DNA of 64,000 nt from an uncultured Acidobacteriota bacterium (GTDB lineage Bacteria; Acidobacteriota; Vicinamibacteria; Vicinamibacterales; 2-12-FULL-66-21), in assembly GCA_963820645.1 (NCBI GenBank), contig CAWGAS010000026.1:2320-66319 (forward strand), in the 5' to 3' direction. Positions 2,159 through 17,931 of the stretch are shown piece by piece (position 1 is the stretch's first letter; each line of letters starts with the position of its first letter). The translations under genes and the position numbers were made by a program. The notes beneath the pieces were generated by a model. That model saw nothing but the letters and a program-made list of their open reading frames with translations, was not told where the DNA came from and ran no database searches.

Positions 2159-4413
2159 ATGACAGAGCGACAAAGCTGGTGGGCGGCGGCTGCGCTCTTT
2201 GTCGGCCTGACGCTCGTGCTCACCTACCCGCTGTCGGTGACAGCCCATCGGGCGCTGCCATCCGACAGTCCTGACGACCACCTCTTCATGTGGACGATCG
2301 CGTGGGACACCCACGCCTTCGTGCACCAGCCGCTGTCGCTCTTCGACGCCAACATTTTTTATCCGAACCGCCGCTCGCTGGCGTACTCCGAGAACCTGAT
2401 CGGCAGCGCCGTCTTCGCCGCGCCGGTGCTGTGGCTCACCGGAAACCCGGTGCTCGCCGTCAACGTCATCTCGCTCCTGTCGTGCGTGTTGTGCGGACTC
2501 GGGGCGTACGGGCTCGGACGGCGCGTGGGATTGACCCCGGCCGCGGCCCTGCTGACCGGCATCGTCTTCGCCTTCTCGCCGCCGCGGTTCTTTCGCTTCA
2601 GCCAGCTTCATCTCGCGCCGGTGCAATGGATTCCGTTCGCCCTGGCGTCGCTTCACGCGTATCTGGAGGGTGGCCGGGCGCGCGATCTGCGCCTGGCAAT
2701 CGCTTTTTTCACGCTCCAGACGCTGGCGAGCGGACACGGCGGGGTCTTCGCGGGAGTCGCCATCCTCCTCATGCTCGCGTACCGGCTCGCCCTCGGCGAA
2801 CCGGTTCTTTTCGGGAAGCGCCTGCGCGATTTCGGTCTCGCGGGCGCGCTGCTGCTGGTGCCGGTCATCCTGGTCGCGATTCCGTATCGTGTGAATCAGG
2901 TCGAGGTGGGACTCCGGCGTGTGCTCGCCACCGCAGGGACGCCGCTCACGAATTTTCTCGCCTCGCCGACACCCGTGGACAGGTTCCTGCGATCGCTCAT
3001 CACGAGCCAGGCCCCTGACGGAGAAGTGACAGCCTATTTGTTCCCAGGGCTTCTCCCCATTCTTCTCGCCCTGGTCGCGATCGCCGGAAGCGCCGCGGCA
3101 TTGGCGACTCGCATCAAGCACATGGCGCCGGCGGATGCCGCGGTGCGAGGACATGGCTCTCGACGGCGGGTCGATACAAGAGTCCGCTTCGTGTATTCCT
3201 CATCGCCGGGCTCTCGTGGGCCTTGCTCGGTCTCATTCCCTCGATCGTGCGCCCCGGCGCCAGGCTGACAGCGCAGGCTTACGGCAACGATAGAGTCGCG
3301 TGGACCGGGTACCTGAATATTGCGCAGACGGGCCGCTACACCTTCCGTGTTCCATCAGATGGGGAGTGGCGGCTGACGATCGGAGACGAGGTGATCTTCG
3401 ACCGCCCAGCCGGGCAGGTGGAAGCCCCGGGTAGGGGAACCGTGGCGTTGATCGCGGGGTCTCACCGCATCTTCCTGGAGCGCCGCCACCGCGTCGGATC
3501 GCCGGTCTTCAGGCTGCTCTGGGCACGGGAAGGCGACGATGAGAGTTTTCAACCGGTGCCTTCCAGCGCGCTGTCGCGGGGGCCGGTCAGCGACTCGGCG
3601 CTCGTGCTCCTCCGCGCGCTCGCCTGGCTTCGCGTCACCTCCGCGATCGTCGCCGCGTCGGCCGCACTGTGGTGCGCAGGCGCCTGGCTTGCCCGGCGGC
3701 GCACGGCCTGGACCGCGTGGGGCGCCCGGTACCGTCGCAGCCCGACAGCGTTCTACTTGCTGCTGACCGCCGTCTCAGCAGGCCTCGCGCTCGGGGGACG
3801 GTCAGGGCTCTGGCAATTCGTTTACTGGCTCCCCGGATTCAATTTCATTCGCGAGCCGTCCCGTTTCACGGTGCTGAGTGTTCTCGGAATCGCCGTTCTG
3901 GCTGGCGTGGGATTCGACTGGCTGACCGCCTGGCTGTCGCGCTCGCGCCGTCGCCTCGCTGCCGTCGTGGCCGGCGGGCTGTTGGTGGCGGAGTTTTCCA
4001 CGATCCCGTTCACGGCGACTCCGTACCGGCTCGAGATCCCCGCCGCCGATCGGTGGGTGGCCGGCCGGCCGAAGCCTTTCTCAATTGCAGAGGTCCCGGC
4101 GCCGGGGCCCGAGCGTTACCATTCGAACTACATGCTGCATTCCATGGCGCACTGGCAGAAGACGGTGCACGGATTCAGCGGGATCCGGCCTGCTCTTCAT
4201 GACGAGCTGTACCGGCAACTCGAGAGCTTTCCGAGCGAGGAAAGCGTGCGGCATCTTGCGCAACTCGGCGTGACCTACGTCATCGTCCACAGCAGCTGGT
4301 TCCCGCCTGAGGAACGCGGCTCGATCGAAGAACGTCTGCCCAGGTTCGGTTCGTCATTGACGCTGGAATACATGGACGCGGATTCCCGGGTCTACTCCGT
4401 TCATCGCCGGTGA
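2159..4413 (+). CDS. Multi-pass GT-C/YfhO-like membrane glycosyltransferase with internal PA14-like domain (frameshift near 3200)
   Basis: W..AWD.H...LFDANIFYP...LAYSE motif; hydrophobic helices; PA14-like WTGYLNIAQTGRYTFRVPSDG; C-terminal RxPSRF and GVTYVIVH; joined from ORFs 1721-3268 and 3223-4413. Confidence 0.7.
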
Positions 4414-4449: not shown

Positions 4450-5391
4450 ATGAAGAATTATCACGATATCGTCGGCGACGGAGGGTCCGGAGTCCTCGAG
4501 CAGGTTGCCGAGCAGCGCGCCCGCATTACCGACGGCCTCGCCGGGGTGCGCCATCTCGTGGCCGTCGGCTCCGGCAAGGGCGGTGTCGGCAAGAGCACCT
4601 TGACGCTGCACCTCGCCGGCGCTCTGCGCGCCCGGGGGCTTCGGATTGCGATCCTGGACGCGGACTTCAACGGGCCCTCACAGGCGCGCATGGCGGGCAT
4701 CCAGGGGTCGCTGTTCGTTCCCCCGCCTTCGCCCAAGGGCTTCGGCCCTTCGACAAGCTCAGGGCCGTCCCGAGCAACGTCGAGGGACGGCGCGGCAAGC
4801 GGCAGCGACAAAGTCGCGCTTCCCCGGACCAGCAACGGGATCGGCGTCTTCTCGATGGGCTCGATGATCCCGGAGTCGGAGTCGCTCGAGTTCGAGAGCG
4901 CGGCGCAGGGCGAGTCCCACACGTGGCGCGCCACGAGGGAGTTCGCTCTCCTCAGCGAGATCCTGGGGGCCTTCGAGTGGGGAACGCTCGATCTGCTGAT
5001 GTTCGATCTGCCGCCGGGCGCCGAGCGGACTGTCCAGTACGCCGATTTTCTCGGACCACGGACCTCGTTCCTGCTCGTGACGATCCCTTCCGAGGTGGCC
5101 CGGGGCGTGGTCGCGCGCTCGGTGGCCGCTCTGTCGAGGGGCCCGAATCGCCTCCTCGGGTACGTCGAGAACATGAGCGGCTACTACTGCCGCGACTGCA
5201 ACGCCATCAAGCCTCTGTTCGATTCACCCGTCCGCTCTGGCATCGAAGTCCCCTGTCTCGGGACCGTTCCCTTCGATCCCGAGCTGGCACGGCACTGCGA
5301 TCGGGGTCTTCCTCTCGAAGACCTGCCCGGAACCCCCGTCGGCAGAGCCCTCGACCAGGTGGCGCAACAGCTTCTGGAGACGCTTCAATGA
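4450..5391 (+). CDS. Mrp/NBP35 (ApbC-like) Fe-S carrier ATPase
   Basis: Deviant Walker A GSGKGGVGKST, DADFNGPS, DLPPG, ENMSGYYCRDC (CxxC). Confidence 0.9.
   Translation: MKNYHDIVGDGGSGVLEQVAEQRARITDGLAGVRHLVAVGSGKGGVGKSTLTLHLAGALRARGLRIAILDADFNGPSQARMAGIQGSLFVPPPSPKGFGPSTSSGPSRATSRDGAASGSDKVALPRTSNGIGVFSMGSMIPESESLEFESAAQGESHTWRATREFALLSEILGAFEWGTLDLLMFDLPPGAERTVQYADFLGPRTSFLLVTIPSEVARGVVARSVAALSRGPNRLLGYVENMSGYYCRDCNAIKPLFDSPVRSGIEVPCLGTVPFDPELARHCDRGLPLEDLPGTPVGRALDQVAQQLLETLQ
4723..4800. repeat. Nested REP-like palindromic elements inserted in frame in the Mrp gene
   Basis: ccgccttcgcccaagggcttcggc[ccttcgacaagctcagggccgtcccgagcaacgtcgagggac]ggcgcggcaagc, 78 bp = 26 codons. Confidence 0.7.
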
Positions 5392-5812
5392 AGTTCCTGT
5401 GTGTCCCCTGCGACAGCCCGATGAAGCTGCAGACCGTCGGCCCGCCCGAGCGCGGATCGCTGTCCATCGTGTACTCGTGCCCTGAGTGCGGCTACGAGAT
5501 GGCGATGCTGACCAACGCGTACGAAACACAGGTCGTTCAGTCACTCGGCGTGCGGATTGGGCCCGAAGCGGCGGTTGGAACATCCGGAGGCAAGTGTCCG
5601 TTCTCGGCGATGATTCCAGGGAACGGGGAAGCGCGGCCGGATGATCCGGTCCCCGTCCGGTGGACGGCCGCCGCCGAAGCCAGGCTCGCCAACATTCCCG
5701 ATTTCGTCCGTCCCATGGCGCGGACCGGCATCGAGAAATTCGCGCGCGAGAGAGGGACCCTCGAAGTGGACGAGAGATCCTCGACGCGGCCCGTGACTTC
5801 TTCGGCATGTGA
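5388..5812 (+). CDS. Small protein: N-terminal double-CxxC zinc ribbon plus C-terminal PCP_red domain (1-bp frameshift near 5775)
   Basis: ATGA overlap with Mrp stop; MKFLCVPC..YSCPECGY..GKCPF..WTAAAEARLANIPDFVRPMARTGIEKFARERG..ILDAARDFFGM*. Confidence 0.8.
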
Positions 5813-5838
5813 GGCTGTGTTGACCGCAAACCGTCTTG

Positions 5839-5912
5839 AACAGGAGATCAGGAGATCAGGAGTTATTTTGGTTTTGAGAAAGAAATCTCCTGACCTCCTG
5901 AACTCCCTGTAA
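5839..5912. repeat. Octamer-based inverted repeat (CAGGAGAT)n...(CTCCTGA)n; related copy at 58571-58638
   Basis: aacaggagatcaggagatcaggagtt ... atctcctgacctcctgaactccctgt. Confidence 0.75.
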
Positions 5913-5946
5913 AGCTGACTGTCACAGGCGCCGCTAATCAGACACC

Positions 5947-7455
5947 ATGCCGCATCCGGACACGATCCCGCCTGCCCTGAGCCGAGTCGAAGGGTTCGCC
6001 CGGCCCTACGTCGTCTCCTGGAACCTCACCTACCGCTGCAACCTCGCCTGCGAGCACTGCTATCTCGACGCCGGCGGCGCGCCTCAGGTCGGCACCGAGA
6101 ACTTCGCGGACCGGAGCGAGCTCGGCACCGACGAGTGCTTCAGGGTCATCGACGAAATCGCCGCCTTCGCGCCTGAATGCCTGACGATCCTGACGGGCGG
6201 CGAGCCGCTGCTCCGCCGCGACATCCTGGAGATCGTCAGGCGCGCGTCGGAGCGTGGGCTTTGGGTCGTCGTCGGCACCAACGGCGTGAGCATCACGGAG
6301 AACCTGGCCGGGCGGCTCGCGGAAGCCGGCGCGCGGGGGCTCTCGCTCTCCCTCGATGCTCTCGATGCCGATCGTCACGACCGTTTCAGGAATGTTCGCG
6401 GCGCGTGGCGGAACACGGTGGAGGGAGCGGAGATCCTGAACCGGACCGGGCTCCCCTTCATCGTGCAGACGACCGCGGGCTCGCACAATCTCGGCGAGCT
6501 CGACGCGATCGCCGACTTCGCGCACGATCGCCTCGCCGCCAAGGTCTGGAACCTCTACTTCCTGGTGCCGACGGGGCGCGGGCAGTACGTGTCGGACATC
6601 ACCCCCGCGCAGTACGACGATGTTCTCGCCTCGCTCTACCGGATCCAGAGGAAGTACGACCGCCGGATGCTCGTGAACGCGAAGTGCGCTCCGCACTACA
6701 TCAAGACCGTTCTGGAGAATGCCGCCCAGCACGGCTCAGGGCAGGCCCTTCGACCGGGCTCAGGACCGGCGGCGCGCAGGGCGATCCGATCCCCGCGGAT
6801 CCCCACCTTCGCCAAGGCTACGGTGGGCAAGCCGAATCGGCGAGCGCCTTCTCCCGGATCAGGACCTACTCCGGAGGGGCCGGCGGGTGCCCGGCCGGGA
6901 CGCATTACATGGGGATACGGCCGAACGGAGATGTCACCCCGTGCCCCGTACCTCCCGGTCTTCGCGGGAACTCTTCGCAGCTCGAGTCTGGCGGACCTGT
7001 GGACGTCCTCGGGTCTGTTCGCCGACATCCGCCGCCGCACCTCGCTCGGGGGGCGATGCGGGGAGTGCGAGATGAACGGACACTGTGGGGGCTGCCGCGC
7101 GCGGGCCTACGGGATGACCGGCGATCTGATGGCCGAAGACCCGCTCTGCACCCACACCCCCGGCACGTTCGCCGGGTCCCCGCTTCGCGCGTCGCGGCGC
7201 GGCGGGGCCACGCCCGCCTTGCCCCTGCGGCGCTCGGCGAGACGCGCGCGATCGAGTACGGTCCCGAATCACCGACGACCGTCGCATGGGACGATGCGGC
7301 GGCCGAACGTATGAAGAAGATCCCGGCGTTCGTCCGGGGCATGGTCGTCAGCGGCCGTCGAGGAGTCCTGCCGCAGGAACGGCCTCGACCGCGTGACGGC
7401 GGAAGAGCTGGAGAAGATCCGCGCGCGGATGCCGACGCCGAAGATGTTCGGGTAG
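5947..7455 (+). CDS. Radical SAM/SPASM enzyme (AhbD/NirJ-like) with C-terminal PCP_red domain (several frameshifts)
   Basis: WNLTYRCNLACEHC; TGGEPLLR; KCAPHY; SPASM cysteines CPAGTHYMGIRPNGDVTPCP and CGECEMNGHCGGCRARAY..DPLC; tail WDDAAAERMKKIPAFVRGMV..ELEKIRARMPTPKMFG*. Confidence 0.85.
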
Positions 7456-7462
7456 CTGCGGC
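7401..7462 (+). repeat. 62-bp direct repeat, copy 1 (3' end of the radical SAM gene)
   Basis: ggaagagctggagaagatccgcgcgcggatgccgacgccgaagatgttcgggtagctgcggc; one mismatch to 11351-11412. Confidence 0.95.
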
Positions 7463-8060
7463 GAGCGGAACGGACCGGGCCGGAGGAGCCCCCGCGAGTG
7501 GAACCGAATTGATGTTGACGAGACGCGGACGACGGAACCACAGACCCAGCTGGACGTGACCTCAAACAGCAGACCGACTTGCCTACGGTCTTCATCGACA
7601 GGGCCGTGCGTCAGGCCGCGAGGAAGAGGCTGCGGAAGTTCAAGGGCCGCGCCAAGCCGAGCTGATCGGGGTGGCGGCAGGTGAATCAGGTGATCACCAG
7701 GTCGATGTGCGCGAGCGTCTCTCGATCGATCGCGGGCCATGGTGCCGGGAGGGCGGCACCGCTAACGAGAGCCCCGGCGCATTTGTCGTGCAGCAGGATC
7801 GAAGGGAGGGCTCGAGGCCGAGGCGCAACTGGGGTAGACCCGATTGGCAACCGCAGTTGCCTCAGCTTGCACATGCGCGTGGCTGTCTGCGCGATTCCCC
7901 ACTAACACACCGCCGCCGATGTGTGCTGTGGGCTCTTCGTGGGCTCGGCCGACGGCACGACGTACGCTGCGCGTCCAGGCGTACCCGCCGGGTGCAGGAG
8001 TCGGTCCACATGTCTCATGGGTCCGCAGCGATGCTACCGGACGACGCATAACGCCCGGGG

Positions 8061-8160
8061 GTTGCTCTCGTTCCGCCCCAGACATCGGGGTCGCTCCCGA
8101 AGCTCGTCGACCGCGTCCGCGCCGCGGTGCGCACGCGGCACTACAGCCGCCGAACCGATA
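8061..8160 (+). pseudogene. Integron-integrase (IntI-like) N-terminal fragment
   Basis: Frame from 8097 reads PKLVDRVRAAVRTRHYSRRT, resembling the IntI N-terminal consensus (P.LLD.VR...R..HYS.RTE..Y); similarity then stops, and there is an in-frame stop upstream at 8049-8051. Confidence 0.7.
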
Positions 8161-8230
8161 GATGCCGGGGGCACGGCCGGAGAAACGGCCAACTCGATTG
8201 CCGTGTAGGATGGCTCCTCTGAGGGTTCCC

Positions 8231-11200
8231 ATGAAAATGAGAATGCGCCATCCCATTGCGCTGATCGTCCTCGTCTGCGCCACGCTGCTTTCTGCCCGCC
8301 CAGCCCTCGCGCAGTTCTCACAGCAGGGGCCGAAGTTGGTGGGGACGGGCGCCGTGGGGAGCGCTTCCCAAGGCACTCCGTGTCCGTCTCCGCCGACGGC
8401 AACACGGCCATCGTCGGAGGGCCCGCCGACAACGGTCGCTGGGGCCGCGTGGGTCTGGACGAGGAGCGGAGGCGTCTGGACCCAGCAGGGACCCAAGCTG
8501 GTCGGCTCGGGCGCCGTGGGAGCCGCCGCTACAAGGCTACTCCGTGTCCCTCTCCGCCGACGGCAACACGGCCATCGTCGGAGGGCTCGAGCGACAACAG
8601 CGACGCTGGGGCCGCGTGGGTCTGGACGCGGAGCGGAGGCGTCTGGACCCAGCAGGGACCCAAGCTGGTCGGCTCGGGCGCCGTGGGGAACGCTGGCCAA
8701 GGCATCTCCGTGTCCCTCTCCGCCGACGGCAACACGGCCATCGTCGGAGGGATCGGCGACAACGGTGGCGCTGGAGCCGCGTGGGTCTGGACGAGGAGCG
8801 GAGGCGTCTGGACCCAGCAGGGCCCCAAGCTGGTCGGCTCGGGCGCCGTGGGGAACGCTCACCAAGGCTGTTCCGTGTCCCTCTCCGCCGACGGCAACAC
8901 GGCCATCGTCGGAGGGCACGACGACAACAGTGGCGCTGGGGCCGCGTGGGTCTGGACGAGGAGCGGAGGCGTCTGGACCCAGCAGGGACCCAAGCTGGTC
9001 GGCTCGGGCGCCGTGGGGAACGCCCAACAAGGCCGGTCCGTGTCCCTCTCCGCCGACGGCAACACGGCCATCGTCGGAGGGTCCGGCGACCGTCGGCGTC
9101 GGGGCCGCGTGGGTCTGGACGAGGAGCGGAGGCGTCTGGACCCAGCAGGGACCCAAGCTGGTCGGCTCGGGCGCGGTGGGGAACGCTCAGCAAGGCTATT
9201 CCGTGTCCCTCTCCGCCGACGGCAACACGGCCATCGTCGGAGGGCCCATCGACAACAGTCAACGCTGGGGCCGCGTGGGTCTGGACGAGGAGCGGCGGCA
9301 GTCTGGACCCAGCAGGGACCCAAGCTGGTCGGCTCGGGCGCCGTGGGGAGCGCTGACCAAGGCGTCTCCGTGTCCCTCTCCGCCGACGGCAACACGGCCA
9401 TCGTCGGAGGGCGGACCGACAACGGTAGCGCTGGGGCCGCGTGGGTCTGGACCGCGTCCACGCCGCCAACAATCACGACGGAGCCTTCAAATCAGACGGT
9501 GAAGGCGGGGCGGTTGGCGACCTTCTCGGTGGCCGCGGTCGGGACGCCGACGCCGACGGTGCAGTGGCAGGTGAGCACGAACAGCGGAGGCATGTGGACC
9601 GATGTCGGCGGTGCGACGTCGACGACGTACGCGTTAACCGCGACGGCCGCGGACCACGGCAAGTGGTTCCGCGCCGTCTTCACGAACAGCGTGAGTTCGA
9701 CCACCAGCAACGCGGCCACGCTGACAGTGCGCTCGGTAAGCGGCAGCGACTTCAACGGCGACGGCGCGACCGACATGGCCGTGTACCGATCATCGACCGG
9801 TATGTGGTCCATCCGGAACCAGAGCGCCGTGCAGTTTGGCGGGCCGGGCTACATTCCGGTGGCGGGGGACTACAACGGCGACGGCACGACCGACATGGCC
9901 GTGTACCGGCCGTCCAATGGCACGTGGTCCGTGCGCAATCAGTCGACCACCCAATTCGGGATCCGGGTGACATCCCGGTGCCGGGCGACTACGACGGTAA
10001 TGGCACGACCGATCTCGCCGTGTATCGACCGTCCACGGGGGGCTGGTTCGTGCGCAACCAGTTTGCGGTCCCAGGGTTTGGCGGCCCCGACTACATTCCC
10101 GTCGTCGCGGACTACAACGGCGACGGCACGGCCGACATCGCGGTGTATCGTCCGTCCACCGGGCAGTGGTTCGTGCGGAACCAGTTCGCGATCCAGTTCG
10201 GCGGGCCGGGCGACGTGCCGGTGCCTGCAGACTTCAACGGCGACGGGTCGGCGGACCTGGCCGTGTATCGTGCGGCGACCGGGTTCTGGTTCGTGCGGAA
10301 CCAGCTCGCGCTGTCGTTTGGCAGCCAGGGGGACCTGCCAATCGCGCGCGACTTCAACGGCGACGGGACTGCCGATCTCGCGGTGTATCGACCGGCCACC
10401 GGCCAGTGGTTCGTGCGCAACCAGTTCACCGTGCAGTTCGGCGAGGGAGCCGACATGCCGGTGCCGCGCGGGGCCTATCCCCTCGCGGCGACCAACGGCG
10501 ATTACAACGCGGACAACGTGACCGACCTGGCGGTGTACCGGCCATCGACGGGCCAGTGGTTCGTGCGCAACCAGGTCGCGGTACAGTTCGGCGATCCCAG
10601 CGACAATCCGGTGCCGGCCGACTACAACGGCGACGGACGCATGGACGTAGCGGTCTACCGGCCGTCCACCGGACACTGGTTCGTGCGCAACCAGTTCGCG
10701 GTGCAGTTCGGCGACCCGAGCGACATTCCAGTGCCGGGCGACTACAACGGCGATGGCGTCGCGGACGTCGCCGTGTACCGTCCGTCGAATGGGTTCTGGT
10801 ACATCCGCAATCAGCCGGCCGTGCAGTTCGGTCAGTCGGGCGACATTCCGGTGCCCGGGGACTACAACGCCGACGGGGTGACCGACATCGCAGTCTATCG
10901 GCCGTCGACCGGGTTCTGGTACGTGCGGAACCAGCTCGCGTTCCAGTTCGGGGAGTCGGGTACGTGCCGGTCGCAGGGGACTACAACGGGGACGGCCTGA
11001 CCGACCTCGCGGTGTTCCGCACCTCCACCGGGACGTGGTACGTGCGCGACCAGCTCGTGGTGCAATTTGGCGACAGCACCGACAAGCCGGTGCCGGGGGA
11101 TTACAACGGCGACGGCACGACGGACGTGGCGGTCTATCGCCCGTCCACGGGCACGTGGTACGTGCGAAACCAGTTCGCCATTCAGTTCGGGGATGCCACA

Positions 11201-11236
11201 GACGTGCTGGTCGTCCGTATCGGCGGCCCGCAGTAA
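8231..11236 (+). CDS. Secreted repeat protein: 7 FG-GAP-like repeats, Ig-like domain, about 12 VCBS/FG-GAP-like repeats (multiple frameshifts)
   Basis: Signal peptide MKMRMRHPIALIVLVCATLLSARPALA; repeats WTQQGPKLVGSGAVG..SVSLSADGNTAIVGG..GAAWVW; Ig PTITTEPSNQTV..PTVQWQVS; repeats GDYNGDG..D.AVYRPSTG.WFVRNQ..QFG. Confidence 0.85.
8321..9450 (+). repeat. Coding tandem repeat, 7 units of about 165 bp
   Basis: Units start near 8321, 8483, 8650, 8815, 8980, 9143 and 9310 (cagcaggg.cc.aag.tggt). Confidence 0.9.
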
Positions 11237-11350
11237 GCCCTCCAATTCAGAAGGGTTGCGCGCACGACGCGTGACCGTGACGTGGGCTTGTTTTCCTACC
11301 GCGCCGGGTTCGACAGAACCCGGCGTGTTTCATTATGTAATCGCAAGGGT

Positions 11351-11412
11351 GGAAGAGTTGGAGAAGATCCGCGCGCGGATGCCGACGCCGAAGATGTTCG
11401 GGTAGCTGCGGC
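11351..11412 (+). repeat. 62-bp direct repeat, copy 2 (orphan copy of the radical SAM gene 3' end)
   Basis: ggaagagttggagaagatccgcgcgcggatgccgacgccgaagatgttcgggtagctgcggc. Confidence 0.95.
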
Positions 11413-11471
11413 CTGGAGCAAAGGCGTGATTGAACACACACTCGACCAGGCGAAAATGGAGGCACTCGAAC

Positions 11472-12392
11472 ATGACTAGAAAGCTTGCTGCCTTGCTCGT
11501 GACACAGATCGTCCTTGGCTGGGTGCCGCCAGAGGCGTTCGCCCAGGACGACACGACGCTCGAGCGCGTGCGAAATCTGGACGTCGAATCCCTGCCAGGC
11601 CCTGTGCCGACCTACTACAGCCCGGGGGCGCGCCCGCGGGCCGAAGAGCTTCAGCGCCGAGTGCGGGACGCTGTCAGTTTCTTTGAGAGTCGCTACGGCA
11701 TTCCAGCGCCCTTGAGCCTGGCAATTCTCAACGAACCGCACTGGGCCGCCATGGGCCGGGGGCCCTACGGGGGGATGAGTGCCTCGGCCGCTCCGCCTGT
11801 CGTCCTTTTGCCCGCGTTCCCCGACAGAGGGGTGATGGCGCAATTCTTCCGCGCAACTCACGCCGCCGCGTCGTCGCCTGAGGTCCGCCAAGCCTGGGCC
11901 AGTCTTGGGGTGTCGCACGAGATGGCAGTCCCTCAGGTGATCGATGCGATGGTGTTTCACGAGGTCGGCCACGTGTTTGGGAGGGCACTCGGCTTTTCGT
12001 GGACGCGACACTGGTTCAACGAGTTCACGGCCACTTACATGGCGCACATCCTTCTACGCAGCAGGGAACCGGCGACTCTCAACATGTGGAAGGCGGTGTC
12101 ATTGGACATCGTTCATGGGTTCAAACCATCGACGCGAAGCCTGGACGAATTCAATCGGCTGTACGGGATGAAAATGGGACCTGAAACGTATGGATGGTTT
12201 TATTCTCACATCAATCTCGGGGTTGCCGCAGTACTCGAGCACCCGCCGGATGCGGACTGGTTCAAAGAGCTGCGCGCGGCCGGCCTCGACAAAGCCAACC
12301 CCTCCCTCACGACGTCAGAGCTGCTCGACCGACTGGAGCGAATGACACCCGGCATCAAGAGTTGGGCTGAGAGGCTGGAGAAAGGTCCCTGA
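11472..12392 (+). CDS. Secreted putative zinc metallopeptidase (gluzincin-like)
   Basis: GGAGG RBS; signal peptide MTRKLAALLV..AFA; HEVGH followed by WFNE. Confidence 0.65.
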   Translation: MTRKLAALLVTQIVLGWVPPEAFAQDDTTLERVRNLDVESLPGPVPTYYSPGARPRAEELQRRVRDAVSFFESRYGIPAPLSLAILNEPHWAAMGRGPYGGMSASAAPPVVLLPAFPDRGVMAQFFRATHAAASSPEVRQAWASLGVSHEMAVPQVIDAMVFHEVGHVFGRALGFSWTRHWFNEFTATYMAHILLRSREPATLNMWKAVSLDIVHGFKPSTRSLDEFNRLYGMKMGPETYGWFYSHINLGVAAVLEHPPDADWFKELRAAGLDKANPSLTTSELLDRLERMTPGIKSWAERLEKGP

Positions 12393-12433
12393 CACGCGCT
12401 TGAAGCTGACGGCGCGCGTAGATTACGGAATGG
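12386..12433 (+). other. Truncated attC-like integron cassette site (left half)
   Basis: tccctgacacgcgcttgaagctgacggcgcgcgtagattacggaatg overlaps the stop codon and resembles the cctaac..cgcttgaagctgacggcg start of environmental attC sites; no matching right arm (GTTRRRY) follows. Confidence 0.5.
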
Positions 12434-12477
12434 TCAAGCTCGGATTCTGACGTCGGCAGGGTCGCTCTGCCCGGTGA

Positions 12478-12999
12478 TCACAGCTTGTACTTCTCTTCCA
12501 ACCACCATGGAATGTAGGCACGGGTTGTAAGGCCTTTCTTGCCGTGGCAGTCGAATCGCCATGTTTGTGCGAATTCAAACATCCGAAGGCCGTAAATCAT
12601 TCCATATTGCACTGCGGTGAGCAGCTTGTTATCGCGGTAGCGAACCCCTTCCGGGGTGACGCGGACATGTTCGTAGTACCCGTTCAGAATCGCCCGCCAC
12701 ATTTTCAGGTCCGCGAGAAAGACGTGCGTTCTATCCAGTTGTCCGGCCATCGACCACGGTGTCGGCACCCGCATCACAAAAACGCCTCGAGCACCCATGA
12801 CGCGGTGGAGTTCATCCAAAACAGTGTAAGGGTCCAGGAAGTGCTCGAGGAGCGATGAGGCTCTCATCTCGTCTGCGCACGCGTTGGCGAACGGCAGACA
12901 GGTGACATCCGCAACAGTCTGAACTCCGGGCACGCGGCGGATATCGATATTCACATAGCCCGCGAGCGGCTCGTTGCCTGAACCGACGTTGATTTTCAC
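12478..12999 (-). CDS. Class I SAM-dependent methyltransferase (type 11-like)
   Basis: GTG start; KINVGSG..GYVNID..ADVTCLPF..LLEHF..LDELHRV. Confidence 0.8.
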   Translation of the reverse strand: MKINVGSGNEPLAGYVNIDIRRVPGVQTVADVTCLPFANACADEMRASSLLEHFLDPYTVLDELHRVMGARGVFVMRVPTPWSMAGQLDRTHVFLADLKMWRAILNGYYEHVRVTPEGVRYRDNKLLTAVQYGMIYGLRMFEFAQTWRFDCHGKKGLTTRAYIPWWLEEKYKL

Positions 13000-13009
13000 G
13001 CACCGCCTG

Positions 13010-13810
13010 TTAGCGGAAGATGTCCGATTCGCCCTTGAGCTTTTCCCCTTCGTCCGCCATCCACTTCTGGAACTCCTCGGCGGTCTGGACGGTGACAAAT
13101 CCTCGCATCGCGGAATGGCCCAGACCGCAGAGCTGCGCGCAGGCGATCTGGTACTGGAACTCGGCATTCCCCTTCCGGGTCCGCATCTCCGCGGTCGTGA
13201 TGGTCGGGACGAACCAGAGGGGGATCGTGAGGCCGGGGATGGCGTCCTGCTTCACGCGGAACTCGGGGACGCCGAAGCTGTGGATGACGTCCTTGCTCCT
13301 GAGCCTGATGATGATCGGCTTGTTCACGGGCAGATAGAGCTGATTGAGCGTCGTGATGTCGTCCTTCCCGGCAGGATCGGCGCGATCGAGTCCCAGGGGG
13401 TTCGCCTGGGCGTCGAGCAGCTTGATGTCCGTGCGGCCGAATACCCCGTCGGGGCCGGCATAGTGGACGTTCCAGGCGAACTGCTCGGCGGTGACCCGAA
13501 CGACCAGCGATTCGCTGTCCGGTGGCATGCGATCGACCCTCGCGGCCCAGAGCGGGATCGCGAATCCGACCAGGAGAATCATTTCGACCACCGCCACGCC
13601 GATCTCGAGATAGCTCGAGGTGTGCGACTTGACCCCCGTGTAGTTCGCGACCGGGTTCCGCGAGCGCCGGAAACGGACCAGGGTGTAGGCGAAGAACCCT
13701 CCCCACCCGACGAACAGGATGAGCATGAACACATGAACCCAGCCGATCATGTCGTCGATCTGCCCGCCGTGAGCCGAGGCGAGCGCCGGGAGTCCGAGCC
13801 AGTCAGTCAT
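13010..13810 (-). CDS. coxB: Cytochrome c oxidase subunit II (CuA, no fused cytochrome c)
   Basis: AEQFAW, DVIHSF, KQDAIPG, CAQLCGLGHSAM; no CxxCH. Confidence 0.92.
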   Translation of the reverse strand: MTDWLGLPALASAHGGQIDDMIGWVHVFMLILFVGWGGFFAYTLVRFRRSRNPVANYTGVKSHTSSYLEIGVAVVEMILLVGFAIPLWAARVDRMPPDSESLVVRVTAEQFAWNVHYAGPDGVFGRTDIKLLDAQANPLGLDRADPAGKDDITTLNQLYLPVNKPIIIRLRSKDVIHSFGVPEFRVKQDAIPGLTIPLWFVPTITTAEMRTRKGNAEFQYQIACAQLCGLGHSAMRGFVTVQTAEEFQKWMADEGEKLKGESDIFR

Positions 13811-14136
13811 GATATTTTCGGCGCCCCCTGGAGCTCCGACCATTCGGTGTCGAGATCCACGTCCGCGATGTGCTTCGCGCGCTTGCGGAGATAGAGAAAG
13901 AAGGCCAGGAACGCGCCCTGCACCGCAAAGGTGATGACCAGCATCACCAGGACGCCGAGCTTCGTCCCGTCGATCATCGAGGTCTCCTCCGCCCCGAAGC
14001 ACGCCGGGCAGGCGAGGACGCTCGAGCTGCCGGCGATCACCACGAACGCGGCTGTGGCGAGAACCCGGCCGATCCTGAGGTCTTTCGTCTGAAGACTGAA
14101 GACCGAAGACAGAAGACCGGAGACCGGAGACTTCAT
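13807..14136 (-). CDS. Small membrane protein with exported CPAC motif
   Basis: Signal-like segment, then ACPACFG and one TM helix; ATGA overlaps on both sides. Confidence 0.75.
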   Translation of the reverse strand: MKSPVSGLLSSVFSLQTKDLRIGRVLATAAFVVIAGSSSVLACPACFGAEETSMIDGTKLGVLVMLVITFAVQGAFLAFFLYLRKRAKHIADVDLDTEWSELQGAPKIS

Positions 14137-14333
14137 CGCAGCGTCCTCGTCTTGCGCAGGAACCACGAGTCGTAGACAACCAGACCGGCCGACACGGCGA
14201 ACGCCGCGACGGCCGCGAGCAGATTTGCGACCCCGTTCCCCCGCCCGTACTGGCCCAGACACCAGACACCGAACAGCACCGCGAGGGCCGCGGAGAGGAG
14301 GATCAGCAGTGCGTGGAACCACCTGAGGTTCAT
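14133..14333 (-). CDS. Small two-TM hypothetical protein in the oxidase operon
   Basis: MNLRWFHALLILLSAALAVLFGVW..WFLRKTRTLR*; translationally coupled. Confidence 0.75.
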   Translation of the reverse strand: MNLRWFHALLILLSAALAVLFGVWCLGQYGRGNGVANLLAAVAAFAVSAGLVVYDSWFLRKTRTLR

Positions 14334-14704
14334 TAATGCGGACTCGGAGCCGGCGCGATTGGCGCGTCGCTCGGCGGTGCTTCGGGAATCCAGTAGCCGT
14401 TGCTGTGGGTGACGACGGGAAGGGCCAGCAGGGCGACGAAGAAGACAACGGTCAGCACGAGGACCGCGTAGATCAGCTTCTTCTCGGAGACGAGGTGCAT
14501 GAAGTAGCACGCCACCAGCGATCCCTTGATGGTCGCGACGAGCAGCGCCACGGTCACGGCCATCGCCACGGACAGGTGGAGGTAGGAGATCGCCACGGTG
14601 ACGATGGTCAGGACCATGAGCACCACGAAGACGGTGATGTAGACCCTGACGTGTCTGTCGATGTCGGCGGCGTGGTCGCTCGTCGCTGCGTGGTCGCTCG
14701 TCAT
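14333..14704 (-). CDS. Cytochrome c oxidase subunit IV (CtaF-like)
   Basis: Y..VFVVLMVLTIVTV..IKGSLVACYFMHL..EKK. Confidence 0.85.
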   Translation of the reverse strand: MTSDHAATSDHAADIDRHVRVYITVFVVLMVLTIVTVAISYLHLSVAMAVTVALLVATIKGSLVACYFMHLVSEKKLIYAVLVLTVVFFVALLALPVVTHSNGYWIPEAPPSDAPIAPAPSPH

Positions 14705-14705
14705 T

Positions 14706-14765
14706 ATTGCCTACAAAAAATAGAGATTGCCTACAAAAAATAGAGATGGCCTACAGAAGGTACAG
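14706..14765. repeat. Three tandem 20-bp units; the third is the real coxIII 3' end
   Basis: attgcctacaaaaaatagag x2 plus atggcctacagaaggtacag. Confidence 0.9.
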
Positions 14766-15341
14766 GGTCGGGAAGAGGAAGATCCAGACCAGATCCACGA
14801 AGTGCCAGAAGAGGCCCGAGTGCTCGACGCGGTTGGTGAACCACTCCGGGTTCGTCTTCCACTGCTTCGCGCCGGGGCCCCAGAAATAGGCGTTCACCGC
14901 CATCCCGCCCATGACGTGGAGCATGTGCAGACCGGTGAGCGTGAAGTAGATGGCGAGGAAGTTGTTCGTGCTCGGATAGAGGTGGTGCTCGAACTTGGCG
15001 CTGTATTCGAAGTACTTGACCACGAGGAAGACGAACCCGAGCAGGATCGTCGCCCCCATGTAGATCCGATAGGTCCCGAAGCGGCGGCGCATCAGCGACG
15101 CCCAGGCCATGACCATCGTGACAGAGGACAGGATCAGGACGATCGTGTTGAACGTGGCGAGCGGGACGTTCAGAATCGTGGCGCCCCGTGGCCAGCTCGT
15201 CGCCCCCGTCCGGATCAGGATGTAGCTCGCAAACAGGGCGCCGAACAGCATGACCTCTGAGGCCAGGAAGAGCCAGATGCCGATCTTGCCGTTGGTGAGA
15301 CCGGTGTCCCGGCGCACCTCGACGGTGTAGGGAATATCCAT
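14751..15341 (-). CDS. coxC: Cytochrome c oxidase subunit III
   Basis: GIWLFLASEVMLFGALF, TGLHMLHV, WHFVDLVWIFLFP. Confidence 0.92.
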   Translation of the reverse strand: MDIPYTVEVRRDTGLTNGKIGIWLFLASEVMLFGALFASYILIRTGATSWPRGATILNVPLATFNTIVLILSSVTMVMAWASLMRRRFGTYRIYMGATILLGFVFLVVKYFEYSAKFEHHLYPSTNNFLAIYFTLTGLHMLHVMGGMAVNAYFWGPGAKQWKTNPEWFTNRVEHSGLFWHFVDLVWIFLFPTLYLL

Positions 15342-15346
15342 CTCGA

Positions 15347-17107
15347 TCAGGCCTCCTGCTGCGGCAGGAAGTCCTTGGCCGCGCCGGGAACGCTGTACTG
15401 GTACGGCCCGCGGTGCGCTTCCGGGGTCACCAGGAAATTGCCGTGCGGGGGAGGCGAGGGAGCGGCCCACTCGATCGTCGTGGCCTGCCACGGGTTCGCG
15501 CCGGTCTTCGCCCCCTTCCAGATGCTCCAGAAGAAATTGAAGATGAAGGGAATCTGGAAGATCCCGAGGGTCCACGCGCCCCAGGAGGACACGACGTTCC
15601 AGTGGAGGAACGGCTGCGCGAAGTCGTAGGTCGCGCCACCGTCGTACAGCCGCCGGGAGACGCCGGCCATTCCCTGAATGAACATCGGCATGAAGACGAC
15701 GTTCATGCAGACGAGCGAGCCGGCGAAATGGATCTTGCCGAGCGTCTCGCTCATGGTCCGCCCGGTGGCCTTCGGGAACCAGTAGTAGATCCCCGCGAAG
15801 AGGGCGAAGATCGTTCCCGGAGCGACGACGTAGTGGAAGTGGGCGATGACGTAGTTCGTGTCGTGCAGCGGGATGTCCGTGGCGTTGAAGGCGAGCGGAA
15901 GCCCCGTGAGCCCGCCGATGCCGAACATCGGGAGAAAGCCGAGCGCGAAGAGCATGGGCGTGTTGAAGCGGATCGATCCGCCCCAGAGCGAGATGATCAG
16001 GGCCGTGAGGATCACGACCGACGGGATCGAGATGATCATCGTGGTCGTCTGGAAGAACGCCGCCATCTCCGTCCCCATGCCGGTCATGAACATGTGGTGC
16101 GCCCAGACGATGAACGACATGAAGCCGAGGAAGACCAGCGAGTAGACCATCGAACGGTAGCCCCACAGAGGCTTCCGCGTGTTGTTCGCGATGATCTCGG
16201 CCACGATGCCCATCGCCGGAAGGATCAGGACGTAGACTTCCGGGTGCGCCAGGAACCAGAACAGGTGCTGCCAGAGAATCGGGTTGCCTCCGCCGGCCAC
16301 GGGGAGGACCTGGCCGCTGACGACGAGGCCGCTCGGGAGGAAGAAGCTCGTGCCGGCCAGACGATCCATCAGCTGCAGGACCGCCGCGGCTTCGAGCGGC
16401 GGGAAGGCCAGGAGCAGGAGGAAGGCCGTGACGAGCTGGGTCCACACGAAGAAGGGGAACCGCATGAAGGTCAGCCCCTTGACGCGGAGCTGGATGATGG
16501 TCGTGATGAAGTTGATCGCTCCGAGCAGCGACGAGGTGATCAGGAAGACCATCCCGATGAGCCACGCCGTCTGGCCCGGCGCGATGATGGCGAGGGGCGT
16601 GTAGGAGGTCCACCCGGACTGCGCGGCCCCTCCGGGGAGGAGAAAACTGGCCAGCATGATCACGCCGCCGAGGAAGAAGCACTGGTAGCTCACCATGTTC
16701 AGCCTCGGGAAGGCCATGTCCGGGGCTCCAATCTGGAGCGGGACCACGAAGTTCCCGAATCCTCCGACGGCGAGAGGGACCACCCCGAGGAAGACCATGA
16801 TGGTGCCGTGCATCGCCCCGAGCTCGTTGTAGAAGTCGGGGAGCATCGTGCCGCCCGGCATCCGCGCCTCGCCGAAGAGGCCGCCGATCAGCGGCAGCGC
16901 GGCGCCCGGGTAGGCGAGCTGCCAGCGCATGAGCATCATCAGCGAAAAGCCGAAGAGGAGGAACAGGAGGCCGGTGACGGCATACTGGATGCCGATCATC
17001 TTGTGGTCGACGGAGAAGACCCACTTGCGCCAGAAGCCCGGCTCCTCGTGATGGGCTTCGTGCGCGCCGTGCGGCCTCGGGGGGGCGACAGCTCCTGGCT
17101 GACTCAT
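15347..17107 (-). CDS. coxA: Heme-copper oxidase subunit I, A1-like
   Basis: DHKMIG, MHGTIM, LFWFLAHPEVY, WAHHM, AHFHY, RR pair. Confidence 0.95.
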   Translation of the reverse strand: MSQPGAVAPPRPHGAHEAHHEEPGFWRKWVFSVDHKMIGIQYAVTGLLFLLFGFSLMMLMRWQLAYPGAALPLIGGLFGEARMPGGTMLPDFYNELGAMHGTIMVFLGVVPLAVGGFGNFVVPLQIGAPDMAFPRLNMVSYQCFFLGGVIMLASFLLPGGAAQSGWTSYTPLAIIAPGQTAWLIGMVFLITSSLLGAINFITTIIQLRVKGLTFMRFPFFVWTQLVTAFLLLLAFPPLEAAAVLQLMDRLAGTSFFLPSGLVVSGQVLPVAGGGNPILWQHLFWFLAHPEVYVLILPAMGIVAEIIANNTRKPLWGYRSMVYSLVFLGFMSFIVWAHHMFMTGMGTEMAAFFQTTTMIISIPSVVILTALIISLWGGSIRFNTPMLFALGFLPMFGIGGLTGLPLAFNATDIPLHDTNYVIAHFHYVVAPGTIFALFAGIYYWFPKATGRTMSETLGKIHFAGSLVCMNVVFMPMFIQGMAGVSRRLYDGGATYDFAQPFLHWNVVSSWGAWTLGIFQIPFIFNFFWSIWKGAKTGANPWQATTIEWAAPSPPPHGNFLVTPEAHRGPYQYSVPGAAKDFLPQQEA

Positions 17108-17127
17108 GAAGGCTGTTCTCCGGATCG

Positions 17128-17851
17128 CTACTTCGCGGGGAGGGCGAACTTGAAGTCCTGGGTCTTCTTATCCGGTGGCGCCAACCGTGACCGAGGCCGT
17201 CTGCGTCCCCAGCCTCTCGTGCCAGGCGGTAATCTCGTAGGTGCCGGCGTCGAGGCCGGAAAGCGTGAACTTCCCGTCCGCGCTCGTCACCGAGAAGAAA
17301 GGATGGGCGAAGACGCCGATGTAGGCAGTCATCCACGGGTGCACGTCGCACTTGATCTGGAAGACCGGCTCCGGCTTGTCGAACGTCGTGGTCGTCTCCT
17401 TGAGCGACGGCGGCATCGGCTTGTTGAACTGCCGGTTGACCTTGGGGAGGGAGTGGACGTTGTGGAGGATGCCGTCGGAGTTCAGGATCTTGTAGGACTG
17501 ACCGACCATGATCCCCTGCGCGTGCGGCACGTACTGACAGCCCTTCTGATCGAGAACCACCGGAGTCGCGGGAGCGGGGTAGGTCTTCCCGGCCGGAAGC
17601 CCCTTCGAGACCCAGACAATGATGTTCCCCATCGTGTTGCCGCTGCCGAGGACCAGCGCCTCGCCCGGCACGGGTGTCGAGTGCTTCTTGGCGCACGCGG
17701 GGTCGGCGTCCATGGCGAGCGGCTTGATGTTCGGGGCTTTCCCGGTGAAGGTGACGGTTCCGGTGACGGACGAGGCGGCGGACGCGATGCCCGGCCACAT
17801 CACCGCAACCAGCCCCGCCGCCAGCCACAACTTGTTCACTGTCCTACGCAT
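17128..17851 (-). CDS. Secreted cupredoxin-like / carboxypeptidase-regulatory-like protein with type-1 Cu motif (probable indel near 17170; ORF-track stop at 17168)
   Basis: AAGGAG RBS; signal peptide; LHNVH..KCDVHPWM; YEITAWHE; alternative frame ends DKKTQDFKFALPAK*. Confidence 0.8.
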
Positions 17852-17931
17852 GCTCGGCTCCTTGGTCATCGCAAAGCGCAAAAATCCTACAGTGGGCCGA
17901 CTGTACACCGCGGCCCGCCGTCCGTGCAACC

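Follow-up and report, generated by a model that had tools for sequence, protein, structure and literature searches.

In bacteria that use the coproporphyrin route, coproheme is converted to heme b by the H2O2-dependent enzyme ChdC. Among Fe-S carrier ATPases, NUBPL/Ind1 serves the assembly of respiratory complex I, and we know of no Mrp protein for which electron transfer has been established. In dark-operative protochlorophyllide oxidoreductase (DPOR), a dimeric Fe-S ATPase of the SIMIBI class, BchL, acts on BchNB, and the BchB/ChlB subunit carries a PCP_red domain (PF08369; 2KRU, 2L09, 2YNM chain D). BchL has a conserved autoinhibitory N-terminal stretch, DGEGSVQVH (PMC7948495), and the helix that covers protochlorophyllide consists of BchB residues 398-420 according to the available portion of PMC12022308. 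For radical SAM enzymes of tetrapyrrole metabolism, the available portion of PMC10114771 gives CX2CX5CX2CX17C as the auxiliary-cluster motif of AhbD and CX2CX5CX20-21C as that of NirJ, and states that an AhbD-like radical SAM enzyme 'might be responsible' for anaerobic coproheme decarboxylation; in the part of PMC10965808 at hand, the oxygen-independent coproheme decarboxylase is called 'yet unknown'. The locus described here lies in a 64,000-nt stretch of DNA, the window, from an uncultured Acidobacteriota bacterium (2-12-FULL-66-21; GenBank GCA_963820645.1, contig CAWGAS010000026.1, positions 2,320-66,319; genome G000). At 4450-7455 three co-oriented genes on the + strand, noticed in a first-pass annotation of the sequence, encode an Mrp-type ATPase, a zinc-ribbon protein with a PCP_red tail (gene 2) and a radical SAM enzyme with the same tail (gene 3). 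This trio is the core of a conserved, uncharacterised gene set that accompanies terminal-oxidase operons.

The first gene (4450-5391, +; 313 aa as read) encodes an Mrp/NBP35/ApbC-type P-loop ATPase. Its translation matches PF10609 over the whole model (158.5 bits; cut-off 27.1) and contains the deviant Walker A sequence GSGKGGVGKST. The GKGGVGKS core and the CxxC ligands C221/C224 (CRDC) are invariant in 13/13 sequences, and the naming of this gene as an Mrp ATPase is retained. The deviant Walker A and the CxxC pair for a bridging cluster are shared with the Mrp/NBP35/ApbC/NUBPL family of Fe-S carriers. Unlike those carriers, the protein has an N-terminal motif of its own and is coupled in translation to a PCP_red protein: the Mrp stop codon TGA (5389-5391) overlaps the gene 2 start codon ATG (5388-5390), as the ATGA reading of the first-pass annotation had it. 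Scores remain below the equivalog cut-offs (ApbC NF008669, 95.8 vs 348; MrpORP NF041136, 138 vs 450). The 32-aa N-terminal extension (4450-4545) has the pattern MKxYHDIxGDGGSxxxxQV, invariant in 13/13 orthologues. This motif loosely recalls the autoinhibitory DGEGSVQVH of BchL (PMC7948495), a resemblance that may be due to chance.

Gene 2 (5388-5812, +) encodes an N-terminal four-Cys zinc ribbon and, at the other end, a PCP_red domain (PF08369, 52.1 bits; cut-off 32.5), joined by a disordered linker that contains CPF. Its family comprises 707 representative clusters at E <= 0.001. In the family alignment the N-terminus is conserved (MKFLCxxC...CPxCG...AMLTNPxETQ) and is followed by a variable linker, usually with CPF, and the C-terminal PCP_red. 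The AlphaFold model (pLDDT 80.8) consists of a zinc-ribbon sheet at residues 1-52, a low-confidence linker (pLDDT 47-54 at residues 61-100) and a three-helix domain. The latter (residues 107-161) aligned with 2KRU at Z 9.6 (root-mean-square deviation 1.3 Å, 55 residues), with 2L09 at Z 6.7 and with residues 479-528 of 2ynm_D at Z 6.4 (1.2 Å, 50 residues). Both peptides quoted earlier for the tails, WTAAAEARLANIPDFVRPMAR in gene 2 and WDDAAAERMKKIPAFVRGMV in gene 3, are present in the DNA. The tails had been taken for PCP_red, and this assignment stands for both by hidden Markov model (HMM) search, for gene 3 through its intact orthologues and for gene 2 also by modelled structure.

The three-helix fold and the sequence family are thus those of the BchB/ChlB domain, but the resemblance to DPOR ends there. 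The trio lacks an Oxidored_nitro body, BchL/BchN and chlorophyll genes, and PCP_red is here attached to a zinc ribbon, a radical SAM enzyme and, in relatives, a Usp protein. Against the model of DPOR subunit B (TIGR01278, threshold 490 bits) the score was 30.8 bits, over positions 457-499 of 512 only. The profile search returned two PCP_red matches in the genome of the window, both at the trio locus; since these are the sole matches, this genome has no BchB. As to what the domain does in DPOR, a lid over the tetrapyrrole pocket was considered and rejected, as the available portions of PMC12022308 and PMC4071322 place the covering helix at BchB 398-420 and not in the last ~50 residues. Nothing on the role of the PCP_red domain was found in the accessible parts of 10.1101/2025.02.17.634645, PMC13474568 and PMC5443842.

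Gene 3 (5947-7455, +) encodes a radical SAM domain (79.1 bits in Pfam; CNLACEHC), a SPASM region and the PCP_red tail. Intact orthologues have 455-500 aa. Among the matches listed, PF08369 was found in 79/119 relatives and SPASM (PF13186) in most, and the shorter ones look truncated. In the window the tail (7287-7452) reaches 26 bits (model positions 1-20 of 45), below the cut-off of 32.5, because it is split by a frame break, an extra base at ~7351-7353 between the tblastn segments 7230-7352 and 7354-7452; intact orthologues score 48-51 bits. Likewise, SPASM reaches 38.6 and 35 bits in two distant orthologues (cut-off 21.5) and 21.3 bits in the window fragment, where a frame break lowers it below the cut-off.

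The radical SAM enzyme was compared with the NCBIfam models. An intact orthologue matched AhbD (TIGR04545) with 296.7 bits over positions 2-339 of 339, and a second orthologue with 291.9 (cut-off 500). NirJ2 (273.8; cut-off 500) and TIGR04053 (259; cut-off 395) followed, and NirJ (158 vs 515), AhbC (141.6 vs 650) and PqqE (121 vs 381) were weaker. Gene 3 is also the best AhbD-model match of its genome. In an alignment of 11 sequences spanning 45-85% identity, C23/C27/C30, C239, C290, C308 and C346x2C349x5C355x2C358x17C376 were invariant in 11/11. The C-terminal set is exactly the AhbD motif CX2CX5CX2CX17C, and the radical SAM site has the form CX3CX2C. The description of gene 3 as AhbD/NirJ-like thus agrees with its nearest models, AhbD and then NirJ2. 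With AhbD, NirJ, NirJ2 and AhbC it shares the CX3CX2C site and a SPASM-type auxiliary cluster region, and with AhbD in particular the exact C-terminal cysteine pattern and a full-length model match. Unlike AhbD, it has the additional PCP_red domain at the C-terminus and a variable insert of 20-60 residues after the KCAPHY motif, is accompanied by Mrp and a PCP_red partner, and is found beside oxidase genes and not genes of the siroheme pathway.

Conservation was surveyed in the 80 best genome loci and in 80 metagenome loci obtained with more distant queries (GC 0.37-0.76). Adjacency was counted in loci with at least 1 kb upstream, with the end of Mrp at most 400 nt from gene 2; the presence of radical SAM and oxidase genes was counted in loci of at least 10 kb (60 genome, 18 metagenome). 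Records with close relatives are metagenome-assembled genomes labelled Acidobacteriota, Vicinamibacteria, Vicinamibacterales, with a few other labels. Mrp was found in all 80 genome loci and the radical SAM gene in 79. Gene 2 directly follows Mrp in 77/78 genome and 45/55 metagenome loci, and the radical SAM gene is present in 59/60 and 12/18 of the long loci, respectively. Co-occurrence of the three genes had been put forward for checking by a gene-neighbourhood survey; the trio proved to be strongly conserved, in hundreds of loci and in at least three gene orders.

The three genes are real, but the system is larger than the first-pass annotation had it, which missed a Usp-PCP_red protein, a GNAT-like protein, a bd-like oxidase, cytochromes c and EB_dh. 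Pfam scans of the flanks showed that the Usp partner (630-900 aa) has two Usp domains, 2-3 PCP_red repeats and a rubredoxin-like zinc ribbon; the further partners are the GNAT-like protein and genes for a heme-copper or bd-like oxidase, cytochrome c and EB_dh. The complete operon of one congener starts with a bd-like CydA (PF01654, 72.5 bits), cytochrome c, a 139-aa open reading frame (ORF) and a di-heme cytochrome c with EB_dh, and continues with Usp-PCP_red, GNAT, Mrp, gene 2 and the radical SAM gene. In gene order type I, cytochrome c/EB_dh, the radical SAM gene, Usp-PCP_red, Mrp and gene 2 follow each other; in type II, the order is Mrp, gene 2, Usp-PCP_red, radical SAM, bd-like CydA and cytochrome c. 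A metagenome locus with a GC of 0.44 has COX3, COX4, SCO1, Usp-PCP_red, a PQQ-type propeller, Mrp, gene 2, CopD and the radical SAM gene. The constant element in every gene order is the Mrp-gene 2 pair. PCP_red occurs in 21 of the 26 genomes of the genus, and gain or loss affects all PCP_red proteins at once. None of the partners (Usp-PCP_red, GNAT, bd-like, cytochrome) received a name from NCBIfam.

Most SPASM enzymes modify peptides, and many maturases of ribosomally synthesized and post-translationally modified peptides (RiPPs) are found among the weaker NCBIfam matches of gene 3. The enzyme could accordingly be a protein or peptide maturase, with gene 2 as its substrate or carrier, the Cys-Pro-Phe of the linker being modified or ligand-binding, and the PCP_red domains serving as enzyme-substrate recognition elements. 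Such a role would suit the nearly constant co-occurrence of gene 2 and the radical SAM gene, and a CPF motif that, within a low-confidence linker, is invariant in 12/12 close relatives and common in a set of 33 sequences. However, the strongest full-length similarities of gene 3 are to tetrapyrrole enzymes and not to RiPP maturases. CPF is lost in several members of the gene 2 family, whose fixed neighbour is Mrp, other genes being placed between gene 2 and the radical SAM gene in types I and II, and in the Usp protein the module occurs with no linker motif of that kind. A maturase function is therefore considered rather unlikely.

In the window, COX2-COX4-COX3-COX1 and the alternative complex III genes run towards the trio, from which a 3.9-kb insert separates them. 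The position beside oxidase genes had been remarked on before and is seen widely outside this genome as well. Matches to COX, bd-like CydA or cytochrome c/EB_dh were found in 44/60 genome and 10/18 metagenome loci of at least 10 kb, compared with 90 of 11,795 windows of 12.4 kb in the genome itself when the same queries and threshold were used as a control, a ratio that overstates the case as the relatives are not independent. The recurrence of the association in rearranged contexts is the stronger argument for the oxidase link. Five genomes of 98-100% completeness were examined for co-inheritance. Three have the trio together with a COX1 orthologue (83-86% identity), and two 100%-complete congeners without the trio have neither an orthologous COX1 nor a PCP_red domain; of these two, one has COX1 paralogues of 38-50% identity at best and the other gave no match at E 1e-50.

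A distant CydA homologue of 629 aa (PF01654, 72.5 bits) is encoded at 8962-10848 (-) of locus L111 (G016:C31), with cytochrome c and EB_dh partners. The same homologue stands with the PCP_red set in the metagenome loci L135, L136, L142, L143 and L153, and also in L156, L159, L161, L176 and L181. It may belong to the bd-like families of 10.1101/2021.01.16.426971; in the available portion of that preprint, the biochemistry of the bd-like families without a quinol site is given as unknown, and radical SAM is not mentioned in its main text, supplements aside. The link to bd-like oxidases of unknown function offers a second entry point to those enzymes. ChdC beside COX1 was considered as a general link and dropped, as this arrangement was seen in only two genomes (G017, G020); tblastn with ChdC of the G017/G020 type found no copy in the 160 loci, the window or its genome.

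The tie of the gene set to oxidase operons and assembly genes (SCO1, CopD) in several orders, and the joint presence or absence of orthologous COX1 and the trio in 5/5 genomes checked, could also mean that the radical SAM enzyme tailors heme for the neighbouring oxidases. It might introduce the formyl group of heme a in an oxygen-independent way or make a heme modification that the bd-like (OR-type) oxidase requires, and Mrp and the PCP_red proteins would be assembly factors. The unknown biochemistry of bd-like families without a quinol site, as given in the accessible part of 10.1101/2021.01.16.426971, leaves room for such a need. Heme a synthase CtaA, however, is present in 22/26 genomes of the genus and in 14/14 high-quality ones, and therefore leaves no gap to fill; a forced replacement of heme a synthase by the radical SAM enzyme is ruled out by the same 22/26 count. 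The cysteine motif and the best HMM match, moreover, indicate propionate chemistry of the AhbD type, and no oxidase-type gene lies within reach in 16/60 genome and 8/18 metagenome long loci. Tailoring of this kind is thus regarded as unlikely.

Of the heme pathway, UroD and ferrochelatase are present in the genus. AhbA/B (PF17805) was found in 0/26 genomes, in a search whose control recovered it in 3 archaea; the radical SAM enzyme is therefore not part of a siroheme route. A Chlor_dismutase-family match occurs in 24/26 genomes and is strong (115-182 bits) in five. True HemN (>325 bits) occurs in 9/26 genomes, with and without the trio. Both complete genomes that lack the trio have HemN, adjoining hemH, and two genomes of 95% completeness have neither the trio nor HemN.

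Tentatively, and at somewhat less than even odds, the trio is read as the core of a cofactor-maturation module and gene 3 as an oxygen-independent iron-tetrapyrrole enzyme for oxidase biogenesis, with Mrp supplying clusters or electrons and PCP_red joining the parts. As an AhbD-type enzyme, gene 3 would alter the side chains of an iron tetrapyrrole without oxygen, most probably by decarboxylating coproheme to heme b. The dimer of the Mrp-like ATPase would load or repair the three Fe-S clusters of the enzyme, or gate electrons to them. Mrp would be recruited through the PCP_red modules of the enzyme, of the zinc-ribbon protein, which would be an adaptor or carrier, and of the large Usp-PCP_red scaffold that most relatives possess. 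The data show what the genes are, that they are conserved and inherited together and that oxidase genes lie nearby; the substrate, the direction of transfer and the docking of PCP_red on Mrp are what we infer. Being AhbD-like, widespread among the abundant Acidobacteriota of soils and encoded beside oxidase operons, the enzyme is a concrete candidate for the oxygen-independent step.

Several observations weigh against assigning gene 3 to coproheme chemistry with Mrp as its partner. The enzyme reaches no curated NCBIfam cut-off, AhbD included (297 vs 500), and, judged by these scores, is a separate subfamily; canonical AhbD requires none of the accessory proteins present here. In 10/55 metagenome loci a gene 2 relative stands without adjacent Mrp. 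PCP_red is missing from 5/26 genomes of the genus, three of them at least 95% complete, and the module is thus dispensable. Strong ChdC coexists with the trio in three genomes (G017, G020, G007), and the proposal that the trio is complementary to HemN or ChdC was rejected as no clean pattern emerged.

The proposed contact between PCP_red and Mrp was examined by structure prediction. Folds of two Mrp, two ATP and gene 2 gave an ipSAE of 0.59 (runs 0.59, 0.48 and 0.60), against a best value of 0.00 in three controls, and the verdict of the tool was 'weak support'. The ipSAE mark is reached by 58/80 solved complexes and 2/110 mismatched pairs, but at values up to 0.60 by only 7 of those 80 complexes and by both mismatches, a range where, by the tool's own rating, a prediction not already likely on other grounds fails more often than it succeeds. 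At least 68% of the contacts are common to the runs, and the partner has a pLDDT of 67 or higher. The fold returned no interface and did not distinguish docking through PCP_red from docking through the zinc ribbon. Among the DPOR entries returned by structure comparison, the domain aligned only in 2YNM, which is bound to the L protein, and sequence search found PCP_red also within the constructs of 3AEK, 2XDQ and 8VQI. The alignment to 2YNM only is compatible with the domain becoming ordered on complex formation, though it does not prove this.

The docking idea is attractive because of the analogy to BchL-BchNB, in which, as here, a dimeric Fe-S ATPase of the SIMIBI class is encoded with PCP_red-bearing partners, although the ATPase of the trio is of the Mrp type and not of the NifH/BchL type. 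The results neither establish nor refute that PCP_red is a handle for Mrp; the constant adjacency of Mrp and gene 2 and the joint gain or loss of all PCP_red proteins favour it, as do the weakly supported fold and the alignment in 2YNM. In the fullest form of the proposal, PCP_red would be a portable handle for SIMIBI Fe-S ATPases, the Mrp dimer would dock on tagged clients as BchL does on BchNB, and, driven by ATP, low-potential electrons or fresh clusters would enter a radical SAM enzyme of an aerobe that is the long-sought oxygen-independent coproheme decarboxylase and provides heme to oxidases when oxygen is scarce; taken jointly, these claims are improbable. If PCP_red is a recruitment handle, both an unexplained part of DPOR and the way in which Fe-S carriers find their clients would be accounted for. 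Whatever the substrate, a domain of a chlorophyll enzyme recurs in three unrelated proteins, always in the company of an Mrp ATPase. The literature search found no paper that deals with this gene set or with PCP_red other than in DPOR. Enzymes of this class are known, and the tagged, Mrp-coupled and oxidase-linked architecture is new to the literature searched.

Genes 2 and 3 had been read as continuous ORFs, which they are not in the window. Frame changes were located by three-frame reading and by ungapped tblastn with intact relatives, and a frame plot of GC content at third codon positions (GC3) shows the same switches. Gene 2 has one frame change near 5775/5776. Its real end, EILDAARDFFGM, with the stop codon at 5810-5812, lies in another frame, and the ORF 5388-5912 as read carries a false tail of 45 residues. 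Gene 3 is in five pieces, frame 1 at 5947-6729, frame 0 at ~6852-6947, frame 1 at 6946-7209, frame 0 at 7230-7352 and frame 1 at 7354-7455, with at least four frame changes overall. The KCAPHY motif was found in the DNA of gene 3, as was the peptide quoted for its tail, but the two lie in different frames. In comparison with 9/9 related loci, one base is missing at ~5775/6 and one extra base is present at each of ~6944-6948 and ~7351-7353. The other frame switches of gene 3 fall in variable linkers and are thus not precisely placeable.

These frame breaks are very probably errors of assembly rather than signs of gene decay. Assembly error is read as the likeliest cause because the three indels are unique against 9/9 relatives and because hemH and the FG-GAP genes are broken too: hemH (ferrochelatase) of G000 (C21:98507-99321) is split over three frames and is whole in three relatives, and the FG-GAP genes downstream of the trio have Pfam matches in three overlapping frames. 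Single-base gaps relative to the closest relative occur all along 25 kb, and the genome has a completeness of 70.6% in just 56 contigs. A search of sequencing runs with a 2.2-kb stretch returned no run that held more than 0.19 of the sampled words, and none is the source. At least five frame breaks within 2 kb could instead reflect true decay of this copy, with real frameshifts following the loss of the upstream Usp-PCP_red and GNAT genes, so that the trio would have no function here. In line with this, no Usp-PCP_red gene was found in the 70.6%-complete assembly, and the locus has taken up a 3.9-kb insert and dispersed repeats. But hemH and other genes are likewise frame-broken, the first 260 residues of the radical SAM enzyme are 93-96% identical to intact relatives outside the indels, with stop-free correct frames, and the closest relative has its Usp gene ~13 kb upstream, a position that would here fall beyond the contig start. 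Decay of the locus is thus very unlikely.

Upstream of Mrp, a DinB-family gene (1611-2123, +) and a PA14-domain ORF (3019-4410, +) occupy the place of the Usp-PCP_red and GNAT genes found in many relatives. On the other side, by Pfam and tblastn, the heme-copper oxidase operon (13013-17872) comprises COX2 (13013-14302), COX4_pro (14336-14710), COX3 (~14750-15340), COX1 (15350-17167) and a conserved 248-aa CarboxypepD_reg-like protein (17174-17872), all on the - strand; alternative complex III genes, identified by Pfam, follow up to 21231. The CarboxypepD_reg-like protein has a CDVHPWM motif and is kept just upstream of COX1 in many loci, and paralogues of 41-46% identity are found beside CtaA in four relatives.

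Between the trio and the oxidase operon, DNA alignment revealed a second copy of the 3' end of gene 3 (~17 codons and the stop) at 11351-11412 (+). It forms a direct repeat with 7401-7462 (97% DNA identity, one mismatch in ~62 nt). The ~3.9 kb between the repeats (7463-11350) contain frame-broken FG-GAP/Ig-domain genes and are missing from the closest relative; in the relative G004, no counterpart of window positions 7456-13003 was found. From its flanking repeats, the 3.9-kb block seems to be an insertion that duplicated its target. Short dispersed repeats with many copies in this and related genomes are found at ~4723-4800, 5833-5960 and ~6723-6780, the last in a linker of gene 3. The first is an in-frame insert of ~78 nt within the Mrp gene (+; boundaries approximate; 26 extra residues, PPSPKGFG...), recognized as a gap in 11/12 orthologues, and its DNA matches many unrelated sites in the genomes of relatives. 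The repeat at 5833-5960, recognized by DNA matches, lies between genes 2 and 3, reaches the first codons of gene 3 and matches several contigs of G000 and G004 with 79-93% identity.

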